64,000 nucleotides of DNA from positions 1 to 64,000 of the IMG/VR virus record IMGVR_UViG_3300042896_000714; one strand, 5' to 3'. Below, piece after piece: positions 4,457 through 9,807 of this stretch; the first letter of the stretch is position 1; each line of letters starts with the position of its first letter. This stretch comes from a virus. A model generated the notes under the pieces. It was not told where the DNA came from. It was given only the letters and a program-made list of their open reading frames with translations, and searched no databases. The translations under genes and the position numbers were made by a program.

Positions 4457-5755
4457 ATGTACGACATATTTTATATCGGAACACGAGACGATAATCTAGA
4501 ACAATTAAAAACTCGTTTTCCGTTAGTTAAACTGGCTAGTACCTTTGCTGATGCAAAGCACAGATCACTTACGAAAATGTTTTGGTTAGTATGGAATGAT
4601 GTAGTTCCTTTAGATGAGTTTACGTTTGAGTATGATGTCCCAGCTTGGGATCAACAATTTATTCACGTATTTAAAAATGGAGGACATTACGACGGTATTT
4701 GTTTAGCATCGAAGACTGCTCAAGTTTCTGATCGCGAGCTCAAATATCGATTCTTTATTAAAAAGAAAGAAGTTGAAATTCAAGCTAGCAAGCCCAGATT
4801 ATACGATATCTTTTATATTGACACTTACGAGGAATATCAAGAAGCGTTGCAAAACTCTATAACTGAAATGTTTTGGATGACTAGTTACTCACTGGTAGTA
4901 TCTCCTGATTTTAAGTTTGACCTGTATTTTAGTCATTCTGATACTGCTGATAGGGAGCAAACTCATTCGTTCATTCATCGGGGAGATAACGGGGATAGTC
5001 ACAATGGCATCTTTTTGTGCAGTAAACTTGCTCCTATGAGCAAGCGTGAAGTAGAATTTAGATTTCCAATTCATCGAAGGGAATGGGACATTGTAGCTAG
5101 TACTCCAACAAAATATTCAAAATTCTCTGGATTTGTTAGAACTTACGAAGATTATAAAAATGCGCTTACTAGTAGTTTAACTGAACTATTTTGGGTTATA
5201 CCTAATGATGTTAACTTAAATCCTGAATTTCCCTTTACTACGTATTTCTCGCACGATAACGAATTTGATCGTAAGATTAATCACGTGTTTAAAAATGGAG
5301 ATTACTATGATGGGGTAATGCTGTTAAGCAAACATAGTCCAATTTCGGAAAGAGAATTTAAATATAGGTTTCTAACCAATAAAAAGGATTGGGATATAGA
5401 AGCAAGTACACCGAAAAAATATGATATCTTTTACATTGATACATATAAAGAATATCAAGAAGCTTGTGATAAGTCATCAACTGACTTATTTTGGATGACT
5501 AGCAGAAATTTAGCAACTGCCTTTGATTTTAACTTTGATTTGTATTTTAGCCACCATAATACTTACGATCGAAACCAAAATCATGCGTTTAAACACCGTG
5601 TAAATGGTACTGATAGTTATAATGGGATTTTTTTATGCAGCAAAGCTGCTCCATTAAGTAAACGAGAAATAGAATATCGAACTTTTTTGGTACGAAAAGA
5701 ATGGGATATAGTGGCAAGTGGACCAGTAATTTATCAGCAATATGCAGCCAATTAA
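4457..5755 (+). CDS. Tandem-repeat glycosyltransferase-like protein, N-terminal part (four ~105-aa repeats)
   Basis: Repeated YDIFYI..FW..F.F..SH...H.F.NG..YDG..L.SK..RE..RF..KE units. Confidence 0.65.
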   Translation: MYDIFYIGTRDDNLEQLKTRFPLVKLASTFADAKHRSLTKMFWLVWNDVVPLDEFTFEYDVPAWDQQFIHVFKNGGHYDGICLASKTAQVSDRELKYRFFIKKKEVEIQASKPRLYDIFYIDTYEEYQEALQNSITEMFWMTSYSLVVSPDFKFDLYFSHSDTADREQTHSFIHRGDNGDSHNGIFLCSKLAPMSKREVEFRFPIHRREWDIVASTPTKYSKFSGFVRTYEDYKNALTSSLTELFWVIPNDVNLNPEFPFTTYFSHDNEFDRKINHVFKNGDYYDGVMLLSKHSPISEREFKYRFLTNKKDWDIEASTPKKYDIFYIDTYKEYQEACDKSSTDLFWMTSRNLATAFDFNFDLYFSHHNTYDRNQNHAFKHRVNGTDSYNGIFLCSKAAPLSKREIEYRTFLVRKEWDIVASGPVIYQQYAAN

Positions 5756-6701
5756 AACATACGAAGATTATGTAAGAGCTTTGAAGGAATCACCCACGGA
5801 AATGTTTTGGGTGATTCCTGATGATGTAATCGTATCTCCTGATTTTAAGTTTGACATATACTTCTCTCACGATAATGAATACGATCGTAAAATAAATCAT
5901 GTGTTCTTAAATGGGCAATATTACGATGGTCTGATGTTAATGAGTAAGCATAAGCCTGTGAGCACGCGGGAATTCAATAGCCGATTTTTAATTGAAAGAA
6001 AAGAGTGGCCGTTGCAAGTAAGCAACCCAAAACCAAAATTATACGATATCATATTCATCAGTTATAATGAGCCAACTGCAGATGCTAATTTTGCAGCTTT
6101 GCAGGGTAAGCATCCTAAAGCTAAACGGGTGCACGGAATTAAAGGAATCCATAACGCACATATTAAAGCAGCCGAATTATCGGAAACTTCATTATTTTGG
6201 GTAGTAGATGGTGATGCAATAATCCTTGATAATTTTAACTTTGATTACCACGTTCCAACTTGGGATAACGATACAGTGCATGTTTGGAGAAGCAAGAATC
6301 CAATCAATGATTTGGAATACGGATATGGTGGAGTCAAACTACTACCAAGAGAATTAACATTAAACATGGATACGACCTCCACTGATATGACAACTAGCAT
6401 TAGTAATAGTTTTAAAATCATGGATGGTGTAAGTAATGTTACAGCATTTAATACTGATCCATTCAATACATGGAAATCGGCATTTAGAGAATGTGTTAAG
6501 TTAGGTAGTGGAGCAATTGCTAGGGCAGATACTGCATCCCTAGCACGTTATAACACGTGGGCAACAGTGGGCGCTGACAGGGTATTTGGGCAGTATGCTA
6601 TACAAGGTGCTAAAGATGCACTGGTGTTTATAGATAGCAAACAAGATATTAAGTTAATTAATGACTTTGATTGGTTACACGATCAATTTAACAATCAATA
6701 A
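5742..6701 (+). CDS. Glycosyltransferase-like protein, C-terminal part (fifth repeat plus complete GT-A domain); probably a frameshifted continuation of 4457..5755
   Basis: Starts mid-repeat (IKTYEDY); the C-terminal domain is paralogous to 3543..4454 (SYNEP, VHGIKG, VDGDA). Confidence 0.65.
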   Translation: MQPIKTYEDYVRALKESPTEMFWVIPDDVIVSPDFKFDIYFSHDNEYDRKINHVFLNGQYYDGLMLMSKHKPVSTREFNSRFLIERKEWPLQVSNPKPKLYDIIFISYNEPTADANFAALQGKHPKAKRVHGIKGIHNAHIKAAELSETSLFWVVDGDAIILDNFNFDYHVPTWDNDTVHVWRSKNPINDLEYGYGGVKLLPRELTLNMDTTSTDMTTSISNSFKIMDGVSNVTAFNTDPFNTWKSAFRECVKLGSGAIARADTASLARYNTWATVGADRVFGQYAIQGAKDALVFIDSKQDIKLINDFDWLHDQFNNQ

Positions 6702-6723
6702 AAAAGCCCCGTTTGGGGCTTTT
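6700..6723. terminator. Bidirectional rho-independent terminator
   Basis: AAAAAAGCCCC-gttt-GGGGCTTTTT between convergent genes. Confidence 0.85.
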
Positions 6724-6724
6724 C

Positions 6725-8395
6725 TTATACAGCCATTACAGCTTCAATTGCTGAATGCGGGTCATATTCGTCTAGTTTAAAATCATTCATTGTATACTGA
6801 TCGAATTTTTTGTCGGTAGCCATAACTAGTGTAGGTAATGCACGTTCTTCCCTGCTTAATTGCGTATTTACAGCATCAAAGTGATTGTTGTAAATGTGGC
6901 AATCGCCACCAGTCCAAATAAAGTCACCTACTTCTAAATTGCATTCTTTAGCAATAATGTGAGTAAGCAAGCTATAACTGGCAATATTAAAGGGGACGCC
7001 CAAAAACATGTCACAGCTACGTTGATATAATTGGCAGCTTAATTTGCCATCAGTGACATCGAATTGGCTCATAACATGACACGGTGGCAAAGCCATTTGG
7101 TCCAGTTCTCCAGGATTCCAAGCAGTCATAATATGTCGACGACCGTTAGGATCCTTTTTAATACCTTCAATTAAGTTTGCAAGCTGATCAATAAAGAATT
7201 GTTGCCTCCATTTATATCCAGGCGGAGCCTCTTCTTTTTCAAACTTCCAAATTCGAGTTTCGCCGTTTTGTTTAAGGAAAGCCCGATCAACTAATCCATT
7301 AGTATTTGTGTGTTTATTAAACAGTGCCGGTGATGTAAACTTAAAAATTTCACCGGTTTGTTTGTTAGTTGCAGTGTATAGTTTTCCATTATTTGTAGAG
7401 TTAGTCAAAATATACATATTATACCAACTTGGTAAAAAAATAGTGGTACTTCTTCCGTAAAAATTATTACCGAAATAATCTTTGTCTAAATCAAACGTCG
7501 ACGGATTGTCTCTCCATTTGTCGAAACCGACTATTCCATGTATATCTCTATAAAAATTGCTGAAACACCGCCACTCAGACTCAACAAACACACCTTGCTG
7601 TTTATAATATATTGTTTTAACAGGATGATCTCCGTGGCATCGCTCCATCATATTTAACCATAGATTATATGTTTTTGTGAGGTAAGGAGATCTCTTAGTA
7701 ATAATTCCATAACACCCGTGTCCTGATGCTGCTAGCATTGCGTACGGATTTTTTACAGTGCCGGATTTAATATTAGGGCGAGAACATTCAACAATTGTTT
7801 TAATGCCAGTCAAAAACTGTACACGATAATATCCATTGCCATTTCTTGTCGACAGTTTCTTTAGAACTAATAGATCGCCGCACTGTGTTGTTGGAAATAC
7901 TTTGCCGACAAAATCATCTGTATTATCCAAAATAGGGCGTTCAGCCGGGAACTCTTTATAGAAAGGAGCATTAATGCCAACTTTACTGCCTTGTTCGATT
8001 AACGCAACTGATTCAGTCCACGTGTTGTATGCATTCCATTTACGCCATTGGTATCCGTAAACCTTTTGTAGGTCACCTTCGAACTTAGCTCGATTTTTCC
8101 AGTAATCGGCCTTAGCATTACTAGTCCAAATAGTCGTCTTTGCAGCGTCACGAGTTCCATGTAATATTTCAGAGAGTCTTCGTTCATCGCCACTTCCTTC
8201 AATAAACCAAAGTAGCTCACTAACTACGCTTTTCCAAGCAAGCCTTTTAGTTGTAGTTGCAGGAAATCCTGCTTGTAAATCAAACCGCATTTGGTAACCA
8301 AATACACTTCGTGTACCTACGCCAGTACGATCCGCTTTATCCTTTCCGTTGGCTAAAATGTGTTCAAGGGCTTGTCGGAATTGCTTCATATTCAT
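6725..8395 (-). CDS. thyA: Thymidylate synthase with a large in-frame insertion
   Basis: [24 protein letters not shown]...RRHI, catalytic [28 protein letters not shown]; 556 aa versus ~265-300 aa typical. Confidence 0.95.
7195..8030 (-). mobile_element. In-frame HNH-type homing endonuclease module inside thyA
   Basis: [11 protein letters not shown]...Y...[17 protein letters not shown]...[11 protein letters not shown]...T.FLP...N His-Me-finger signature plus a C-terminal NUMOD1-like [14 protein letters not shown] segment; boundaries approximate. Confidence 0.75.
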
Positions 8396-8858
8396 TTATC
8401 TCACAAGTTTCTAATTTTTTTAAATCAACCATTTGAAATCCAACTAAGAATTTATCAATATCAATAGCGGTATCACAATGATACTCTCCTGGTATTCGTG
8501 TAATAAATATTTTTTGTAAAATAGGAATAGTCTGCATTAGCAAGTTAGGCCCACCGATAACAAATATATCTAAATCAGGGTATGTTTCTTGGATTGACAA
8601 TAATCCATCACATACATCTCCGCGAAGTTGCAGTATATCTTCGCGATCAATAAAGTTGTTAGTTACTAGTACGTTTAGTCTATTTGGCAACGGAACTGGC
8701 ATGTCAGTGCATTCCCACGTTTTCTTACCCATTACAACTAGTTGATGTTCAGTAAGGCTTTTAAACCATTGCATGTCTTCTTTATTACGAGGCCAAGGCA
8801 TAGAACCATCAAATCCCATGCCGCCTTTTTCATCGATTGCAAATAGTGCAATTATCAT
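8364..8858 (-). CDS. folA: Dihydrofolate reductase
   Basis: [42 protein letters not shown] motifs. Confidence 0.93.
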
Positions 8859-9175
8859 CTTAGTTTTTTTTGTTTAAGAAATTTTTTAGTTTTGGACGTT
8901 ATGTCTTTTTTAATTCGATCAGTATCTAATTTAAAATCAATATTTTCAATTTCCGATTCATAAGTGGATACTATCTCTTTTAATTGCGCTTCAATAGCTT
9001 CCCAACTATCAATATTTGGAAGTTTGTTGATTGTTATTTCCCACACCTTTGTGTTTTTAAAATGCAAACTAATGGCCTGCAAGTATATTAACGGAACTAC
9101 GGTTAACGTAATTTCGCCAAATACTTCAGGCCAGAAGTCAATCATTTCTTTGGGAAGAGTTTTCCCAGATATCAC
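8855..9175 (-). CDS. Hypothetical protein
   Basis: 106-aa ORF with 4-nt overlaps on both sides. Confidence 0.7.
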   Translation of the reverse strand: MISGKTLPKEMIDFWPEVFGEITLTVVPLIYLQAISLHFKNTKVWEITINKLPNIDSWEAIEAQLKEIVSTYESEIENIDFKLDTDRIKKDITSKTKKFLKQKKLR

Positions 9176-9807
9176 GTTTCTGTCTTTTCTTTCTTTTTAA
9201 CAGTCGGGAAAAGCTCTTCTGCTTGGCGCCGCATATCTGCAGCTTGCTTACTTAATCGATCAGCATCGCTACGGAATCGTTTTGCTTGGTCTTCAGGAGT
9301 AAGATTTTCTACTACTAGTTGTACGTCTTCAGTTACTGCACTTGATGTAGTTTTAGCTGACGGATTTAGATCTTTAATTCGAGCAAGTTCAGTTACTTCG
9401 ACATTTGCCTCTTTGACTGGATTCTTAACAGCCAATTCATCAACTGCGACGCCGAGTTGCTCGGCAATCATTTGATTTAATTCACTAAGTAGTACACTTG
9501 TGCTAAAATTGGGGGTCATCTCAACTTGATCAGTTGAAACTTTTAATAGTTTACCTTGTGCATGTAATGCTGGAAGCATTGTGCTTCCGTCTGGAAACTT
9601 AGACCTTGCAAGCACTTCTGCAAATTCGTTTGCGTTTTGACTTGCAGTAGTTTCAACTGCTTGAATAATTGCGTCATGATTTAAATCTGACAGATTTTCA
9701 GTAGCAACGACTAGACAATTATATGCTTCTCCTGGCAACGTTCTAAAAACCACAAGCACTTTACGGCCAGTGGTTTTTAGACGGCCAACGTGTTTAATAT
9801 CGGCCAT
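9172..9807 (-). CDS. Hypothetical protein
   Basis: 211-aa ORF with GGAG SD and a C-terminal coiled coil. Confidence 0.75.
   Translation of the reverse strand: MADIKHVGRLKTTGRKVLVVFRTLPGEAYNCLVVATENLSDLNHDAIIQAVETTASQNANEFAEVLARSKFPDGSTMLPALHAQGKLLKVSTDQVEMTPNFSTSVLLSELNQMIAEQLGVAVDELAVKNPVKEANVEVTELARIKDLNPSAKTTSSAVTEDVQLVVENLTPEDQAKRFRSDADRLSKQAADMRRQAEELFPTVKKKEKTET

Follow-up and report, generated by a model that had tools for sequence, protein, structure and literature searches.

A putative homing endonuclease module embedded in frame within a phage thymidylate synthase

Results

Organisation of the interrupted thyA gene

The window analysed here is the first 64 kb (64,000 nucleotides) of the 102-kb IMG/VR virus record IMGVR_UViG_3300042896_000714, and its thymidylate synthase (ThyA) gene, thyA, carries a long in-frame insert that resembles homing endonucleases of phages (Table 1). 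Two stretches of the thyA open reading frame (ORF) match the Pfam family Thymidylat_synt (PF00303; E 8.9e-102), and the genome search places them at residues 4-123 (profile positions 1-104) and 393-556 (positions 95-266). The record has a CheckV completeness of 27%, which points to a jumbo phage as the source virus. No second thyA and no thyX was found in its 102 kb.

Between YGYQWRKW and IDQL lies the stop-free insert that the original prediction had described. The limits proposed there, 7195-8030, differ by a few codons from those of Table 1, within the true ambiguity of the boundary. This ambiguity arises because a G-Y-x-W-R motif flanks the insert on both sides (YGYQWRKW and GYKWRQQF), both copies falling on Pfam positions 95-104. 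The two copies lie at 8027-8059 and 7190-7219 on the minus strand, and G393 and R397 of the C-side copy are invariant in the 26 fusion proteins that were aligned. The echo exists at the protein level only, direct DNA repeats flanking the insert being absent; it could be a relic of the origin of the insert or a structural need of its stalk.

The catalytic motifs of ThyA had been described as intact, and their residues are indeed invariant across the 26 fusions: R23, E60, W117, R118, W120, R419, R420, C439 and H440, together with R459, S460, D462, N470, D498, H500 and Y502. A megablast search of the thyA locus against phage records gave no match, and the DNA of the window was recovered in lake and freshwater metagenome runs, with no RNA run among those listed. 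The fusion is not an assembly artefact, since contigs of two further lake or freshwater studies span both junctions unchanged and 34 protein clusters share the architecture.

Table 1. Features of the thyA locus, in coordinates of the window
Feature	Coordinates	Strand	Basis or remarks
thyA ORF with in-frame insert	6725..8395	-	556 aa, stop codon within coordinates
ThyA N-terminal part, residues 1-120, last residues YGYQWRKW	8036..8395	-	Pfam positions 1-104; invariant R23, E60, W117, R118, W120
In-frame insert, residues 121-392, 272 stop-free codons, between YGYQWRKW and IDQL	7220..8035	-	Limits of the Pfam stretches
Linker and stalk strand on the N side, confined to ThyA-borne copies (lacking in free-standing relatives)	7916..8035	-	Alignment; predicted strand 130-134
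Small SH3/Tudor-like beta-barrel, residues ~157-213	7757..7927	-	VIA-align Z 6.1, root-mean-square deviation (rmsd) 3.0, 56 aligned
Core domain: W..M..RC helices, then beta-beta-alpha unit with LDKDY and Asn326	7391..7750	-	Invariant W246, M249, R252, D304, K305, D306, Y313, N326; ICP1 gp59 match; hhalign
LDKDY motif, aligned to HKD of the I-HmuI HNH motif	7475..7489	-	
I-HmuI-type NUMOD-like DNA-binding tail (predicted), residues 326-391	7223..7420	-	VIA-align Z 5.5, rmsd 2.9, 60 aligned to 1u3e residues 112-174; hhalign
C-side stalk and second G-Y-x-W-R copy	7190..7255	-	Predicted strands 383-388, 394-398
ThyA C-terminal part, residues 393-556, catalytic Cys439	6728..7219	-	Pfam positions 95-266
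Dihydrofolate reductase gene, just upstream of thyA, 32-nt overlap with the thyA start	8364..8858	-	PF00186, E 2.5e-24
Terminator-like hairpin over the thyA stop codon	6700..6725	-	

Splicing signatures and coding constraint

The insert had been said to carry no intein signature, no ribozyme and no non-coding flank, and these statements stand. At E <=10, no Pfam intein or Hint family matches the ORF or the insert, and no intein is among the fold-search matches listed. The first column of the insert is E, N, D, G, I or P in the 26 fusions, and the neighbouring columns have no conserved nucleophile. At the C-side junction, columns 400-402 hold F, Y/F and V/I, with no Asn, no His-Asn pair and no conserved Cys, Ser or Thr. 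A cmscan of 6000-9500 (E <=10) returned no match to a group I ribozyme or any other Rfam family inside 7190-8060. The reading frame is open across both junctions in 34/34 clusters, which splicing would not need and which therefore argues against it. Finally, no ORF of 60 aa or more in another frame lies within the insert, which excludes a hidden endonuclease of the kind known from the ShiLan domain (see below).

Substitution patterns are those of coding sequence throughout. In comparison with the relative L011, the proportion of nonsynonymous sites that differ (pN) is 0.19-0.23 in the barrel and core and 0.23-0.24 in ThyA, and the corresponding proportion for synonymous sites (pS) is ~0.75, a saturated value. 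Ratios of nonsynonymous to synonymous rates (dN/dS) are not given because of this saturation, and pN and codon-position patterns are used instead. With few exceptions among regions and comparisons, variation is highest at codon position 3 and lowest at position 2, in the linkers too. Substitution in the two linkers (residues 121-160 and 381-399) is of the coding type, pS being 0.71-0.87 relative to L011, L013 and L014. The N-side linker is the least constrained part (pN 0.43), and the third codon position is still its most variable one.

Removal of the insert by unrecognised protein or RNA splicing, or its omission by translational bypass, is in our judgement very improbable. Splicing elements of phages can evade recognition, and the introns of the ICP1 tape-measure gene were found only by RNA data (PMC10448857). 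For the ThyA insert, however, the missing Hint and Rfam matches, the lack of junction nucleophiles and of His-Asn, the coding-type substitution that extends into the linkers with saturated synonymous sites, the frame kept in every cluster and the single confident AlphaFold2 model into which insert and ThyA are packed all speak against such removal. Nothing was found that could remove the insert, which presumably escapes splicing altogether.

A few DNA contigs of run X4 contain joints that skip 1029-1822 nt of the locus. Their sides extend over only 20-31 letters with 85% likeness, they probably derive from thyA genes of other organisms, and they were not used as evidence.

One ThyA, P0297 (909 aa), carries the same insert in the WRxW/IDQ loop together with a true intein (Intein_splicing, LAGLIDADG) at the catalytic Cys. 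This intein, with junctions ...A/C...SN/C..., was found readily by the same Pfam library, and from this protein ThyA is a hot spot for two kinds of element.

Domain organisation and predicted fold

AlphaFold2, run with a 26-row alignment, predicts the whole fusion with a mean predicted local distance difference test score (pLDDT) of 90.6 and a predicted template modelling score (pTM) of 0.86; for the insert alone the values are 90.6 and 0.83. In the model, the insertion site is a variable loop between predicted strands, in agreement with the surface loop named in the original prediction. Insert-free ThyAs may themselves be long in this loop: L006 (Escherichia phage 121Q), P0041 and P0048 have ~20-37 extra residues there compared with the shortest forms (P0043, WRNFNG-VDQL), which might be remnants of decayed inserts.

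All the motifs reported earlier (W..M.ERC, W..F.NF, LDKD and the NUMOD-like tail) are present in the insert. Its first 41 residues form a linker confined to the ThyA-borne form, as seen in the alignment with free-standing proteins, and a small barrel, a core domain and a tail follow. For the barrel (residues 39-95 of the insert model), VIA-align gave many further rows at Z 4-5. Within the core, strands 301-304 and 319-322 are followed by a helix (323-330), and no row of the fold searches aligned a solved His-Me finger there. Foldseek of the model against the PDB returned no row at E <=0.001, the best being I-HmuI at E 0.15. In BFVD, one similar ThyA fusion and many free-standing phage proteins share the fold of the insert, and some of the latter are named homing endonucleases.

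A second in-frame insertion of ~30-50 aa is found in the fusions P0014, P0020, P0028 and P0038, after the QF.V strand and just past the catalytic Cys.

Relationship to HNH endonucleases

Pfam and NCBIfam gave no match on the insert, and PDB-chain sequence searches with the insert and with the family profile returned chance-level rows only. Residues 44-266 of the insert match phrog_2081, annotated 'HNH endonuclease' (E 5e-25). Residues 85-217 match ORF59 (gp59) of Vibrio phage ICP1 (E 4.3e-6 by genome search, 9e-8 by pairwise comparison), and the two proteins share W..M..RC, EW.C..NF and LDKD...N. ORF59 adjoins the DNA polymerase gene and is, with gp115-116 and gp209, a founder of the IPA-HNH family. 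The IPA-HNH domains of ICP1 have been described as atypical HNH domains that are visible only by HHsearch (Barth, Dunham and Seed 2023, PMC10448857).

I-HmuI of phage SPO1 and its collected relatives were combined into a 29-row profile and compared with a 29-row profile of the insert family. The hhalign comparison took in 99 columns, covering the HNH region and the tail, at 97.2% probability (E 3.8e-11); part of the score came from the shared tail. A clear outcome was obtained with these 29-row profiles only, since I-HmuI as a single sequence, compared with an 8-row profile, had reached 1.6% probability. PF22083 (I-HmuI NUMOD-like) is also detected in free-standing relatives of the insert. In the alignment, D-K-D of the insert family falls on H75-K76-D77 of I-HmuI, and Asn326, an invariant and putatively metal-binding residue in the helix after the hairpin, falls on Asn96; by equal spacing, Lys305 would alternatively stand opposite His75. 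We take His75, Asp74 and Asn96 to be the active-site residues of I-HmuI (PDB 1u3e).

Among 29 free-standing and embedded members, F74, W126, R132, D184, K185, D186, Y193 and N206 (insert numbering) are invariant; in fusion numbering these include W246, R252, D304, K305, D306, Y313 and N326. On profile evidence, the insert module is thus a remote relative within the HNH superfamily. The label 'HNH-type' given to it earlier holds only as remote homology to the I-HmuI family. Because the defining catalytic histidine is replaced in every member, the module is treated here as a putative nuclease.

Free-standing relatives and spread of the fusion

A tblastn search with the insert finds relatives in 520 phage records. 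The free-standing ones are proteins of 233-266 aa whose genes overlap the ends of their neighbours: between the phosphoribosyl pyrophosphate synthetase and nicotinamide phosphoribosyltransferase genes in Bacillus phage DIGNKC, between the DNA polymerase I and clamp loader genes in Rhizobium phage RHph_N46, and between the genes of the ribonucleotide reductase beta subunit and thioredoxin in Bacillus phage SPG24. The insert aligns with these relatives from its residue 42 through its end. The claim that it encodes a complete endonuclease-like unit is thereby strengthened, the insert being a whole-length homologue of free-standing phage genes of homing-endonuclease type, which carry the annotation HNH endonuclease.

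Searching with the insert recovered at least 34 clusters of ThyA fusions (90% identity), and the arrangement is present in cultured phages of E. coli (UE-S1 and ph0011), Klebsiella (KP13-7) and Bacillus (015DV002 and Kioshi). An exhaustive profile-free search yielded 2344 clusters at 50% identity (E <=0.001). Many of the top clusters have 480-680 aa and match at about residues 120-400, and every scanned one with a Pfam hit is a ThyA; the remaining clusters include free-standing proteins and tandem duplications of the module. Three of the free-standing proteins (P0197, P0207 and P0215; 430-600 aa) are tandem duplications of barrel plus core in which the first copy has lost LDKD, and a terminal segment that, read by eye, is AP2-like was seen only in some tandem-module relatives such as P0207.

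Two further proteins, P0210 and P0302, start inside the endonuclease module and continue into the C-terminal half of ThyA; P0302 has LDREY in place of LDKDY. Each may represent a split gene or a gene call that is truncated. Such proteins, and the fact that free-standing relatives begin exactly where the conserved part of the insert starts, would fit an endonuclease that works on its own, either cut out of the fusion by proteolysis or translated from an internal start, with the fusion serving as an expression device only. We hold this to be quite improbable: no conserved Met or start codon lies near the start of the module in the 26 aligned fusions, an internal start would leave the endonuclease fused to the C-terminal half of ThyA, and the gene calls of P0210 and P0302 may be truncated.

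Distribution and histories of insert and host gene

The ThyAs closest to the window protein in the protein collection searched lack the insert. These proteins (P0041-P0043, P0048 and P0075; 275-298 aa) are 76-83% identical to its ThyA parts, and at the insertion site they read WRNFNG-VDQL or have ~20 other residues in place. Other insert-bearing ThyAs (26 proteins) are 36-76% identical to the window protein in the N-distal part, 37-63% in the C-distal part and 33-80% in the insert core. Identities of host and insert can diverge in either direction: P0022 has 37-39% in the distal ThyA parts and 67% in the core, P0039 53-65% and 40%, respectively.

A similar pattern is seen among cultured jumbo phages, 121Q and GAP32 being without the insert and UE-S1 and ph0011 with one. 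The thyA genes of UE-S1 and 121Q are 94.6% identical up to nucleotide 274, then have 1029 nt and an unrelated 405 nt, respectively, and are 90% identical again thereafter; the replaced block is thus sharply bounded, which agrees with co-conversion of host sequence next to the insert. UE-S1 and ph0011, which belong to one genus, carry unrelated inserts at the same thyA site. A flank of 12 residues travels with the insert; empty alleles read LGRVYGVQWRHW at this place.

For the same 26 proteins, one maximum likelihood tree was built from the insert core and another from the ThyA parts. Each alignment rejects the tree of the other: delta lnL is 334 for the host tree on the insert data (p-value of the approximately unbiased test (p-AU) 4.5e-4) and 312 for the insert tree on the host data (p-AU 2.8e-14). 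In a 66-row ThyA tree, the window protein is sister to the insert-free P0041 (SH-aLRT 96). The patchy distribution that the original prediction proposed as a check is borne out by the empty nearest alleles, and the reciprocal rejection of the two trees gives the insert a history unlike that of its host gene.

Neighbouring repeat proteins

Two adjoining ORFs without Pfam hits, at 4457-5755 (+) and 5742-6701 (+), encode 432 and 319 aa. They consist mostly of ~105-aa repeats, with four copies in the first and at least one in the second, and the repeat consensus is YDIFYI.TYEEYQ.A....TE.FW...F.F..YFSH......H.F..G..YDG..L.SK...S.RE...RF.

Discussion

A mobile gene probably kept as an internal domain

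The architecture, the relatives and the histories described above are probably best explained by a mobile homing endonuclease gene that has become a lasting internal domain of ThyA and passes from one thyA allele to another by gene conversion. According to this reading, a homing endonuclease gene of the IPA-HNH-like kind would sit in frame in phage thyA, at the surface loop that WRxW and IDQ delimit. Its core would be a divergent member of the HNH superfamily and its tail a NUMOD of the I-HmuI type. Transcribed and translated with ThyA, the module would remain in the mature protein, where a short two-stranded stalk may keep it away from the enzyme. Its spread among the thyA alleles of co-infecting phages would proceed by gene conversion, flanking thyA sequence being carried along, and would presumably be triggered by the module cutting or nicking insertion-free thyA. 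DNA cleavage by the module, the lack of splicing in vivo and the retention of thymidylate synthase activity are inferred here. The selfish gene thus seems to survive inside the enzyme by being tolerated, and not by being spliced out. The reading of the original prediction is supported in part: it stands in respect of architecture, completeness, missing splicing signature, loop site and patchy distribution, and the HNH type stands as remote homology only.

Several points weigh against this reading. His75 is invariant in the I-HmuI family, and the insert family has an invariant D-K-D in its place, the catalytic histidine being absent from every member. In a wide VIA-align search and a second look, the barrel and the tail alone were matched, and the core domain found no match to a solved structure, which does not imply a new fold. 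No published nuclease activity was found for the IPA-HNH-like family, and the homing of the ICP1 genes is stated by Barth et al. to be unverified (PMC10448857). The constraint on the insert equals that on ThyA, which also fits a domesticated domain. In an approximately unbiased test, the placing of all insert-bearing ThyAs in one clade, that is, a single origin, was not rejected (p-AU 0.465), so that the ThyA tree alone cannot tell a gain in the lineage of the window from losses in its relatives; part of the distribution could reflect loss instead of gain.

Much of this would be expected if the insert were a domesticated domain, derived from a homing endonuclease, that cuts no DNA and serves ThyA, for example in a regulatory role or as a tether between deoxythymidine monophosphate synthesis and DNA or the replisome. 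The scatter of the insert would then come from ordinary homologous recombination among the thyA genes of phages and from occasional precise loss. The absent catalytic His, the purifying selection equal to that on ThyA, the unrejected single origin and the size and age of the fusion family, which is very large and old with insert identities down to 35%, are all in keeping with such a role. We nevertheless think domestication, the main rival reading, unlikely. The His-less D-K-D...N is equally invariant in the free-standing relatives, so that its form in the embedded copies is no sign of decay, and these relatives sit between essential genes, as homing endonuclease genes do. Moreover, the histories of insert and host clash strongly, two different inserts occupy one site within a single phage genus, and the closest ThyA alleles are without the domain.

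The mobile-gene reading can be taken a step further, tentatively. It is a real possibility that the fusion represents, besides introns and inteins, a third, splicing-free lifestyle, in which the element is a permanent and active internal domain, ThyA being at once a thymidylate synthase and a homing enzyme, and in which the obligate ThyA homodimer pairs two monomeric, I-HmuI-like modules on the target.

Comparison with known systems

In the literature library that was searched, no paper describing such an insert in ThyA was found. The closest published case is the ShiLan domain, which with the 'lone LAGLIDADG' insertion occurs in DNA methylase genes of actinophages (Arsenault, Gosselin and Gogarten 2025, PMC11855218; earlier PMC9957025). 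Like the ThyA insert, these insertions leave the host frame open, have no detectable intein or intron, show a disjunct distribution and are predicted to remain in the protein as an outlying structure. In ShiLan, however, the frame that encodes the HNH endonuclease is not that of the host gene, and the part read in frame yields a loop of poor prediction quality, whereas in ThyA the endonuclease-like protein is itself the in-frame product, confidently folded and under strong selection. The host gene and the endonuclease family also differ, and both cases are computational only.

The IPA-HNH genes of ICP1-like phages resemble the ThyA insert in their atypical HNH, seen only by profile-profile comparison, and in their location near or inside essential genes of nucleotide metabolism and replication. 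They are, however, free-standing with a C-terminal AP2 domain, while the insert ends in a NUMOD tail like that of I-HmuI and lacks start and stop codons of its own. I-HmuI, encoded in the DNA polymerase intron of SPO1 (PDB 1u3e), shares with the insert a modular monomeric build and a NUMOD-like C-terminal tail. It differs in having NUMOD4, a canonical HNH_3 with His75 and a group I intron as its home; the insert has an SH3-like barrel and a helical domain, no His at this position and no intron.

Inteins with an HNH or LAGLIDADG endonuclease are likewise in-frame, endonuclease-bearing elements of conserved enzymes. The ThyA insert, by contrast, has no junction nucleophiles, terminal Asn or Hint match, and occupies a variable surface loop and not a conserved active-site motif. 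Another parallel is mobE, which splits nrdA in phage Aeh1 (Friedrich et al. 2007, as cited in PMC10448857). As far as that citing text describes it, an endonuclease gene of a normally free-standing type lies there, too, in an essential gene of nucleotide metabolism, with no splicing element and with the host function kept. According to the same account, the host protein is then made as two polypeptides and the endonuclease has its own ORF, whereas the three parts of the ThyA fusion form one polypeptide.

Implications for homing endonucleases and their hosts

To our knowledge, homing endonuclease genes have been held to enter essential genes only together with a splicing element (an intron or intein) or at the price of a split host gene. 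If true, a complete endonuclease module lodged in an active enzyme would add a further lifestyle for these genes, and the fusion would be a natural case of domain insertion in an enzyme that is among the best studied. Such fusions are widespread, with the clusters found at 90% identity and many more fusion-sized proteins among the clusters at 50%, and the window is one instance of a recurring and apparently unpublished phenomenon. Since the fusion occurs in cultured phages of E. coli, Klebsiella and Bacillus, splicing, cutting without the histidine and self-driven inheritance are directly testable in laboratory phages. Should the module prove active, the chemistry of the uncharacterised IPA-HNH-like family would be defined by it as well.

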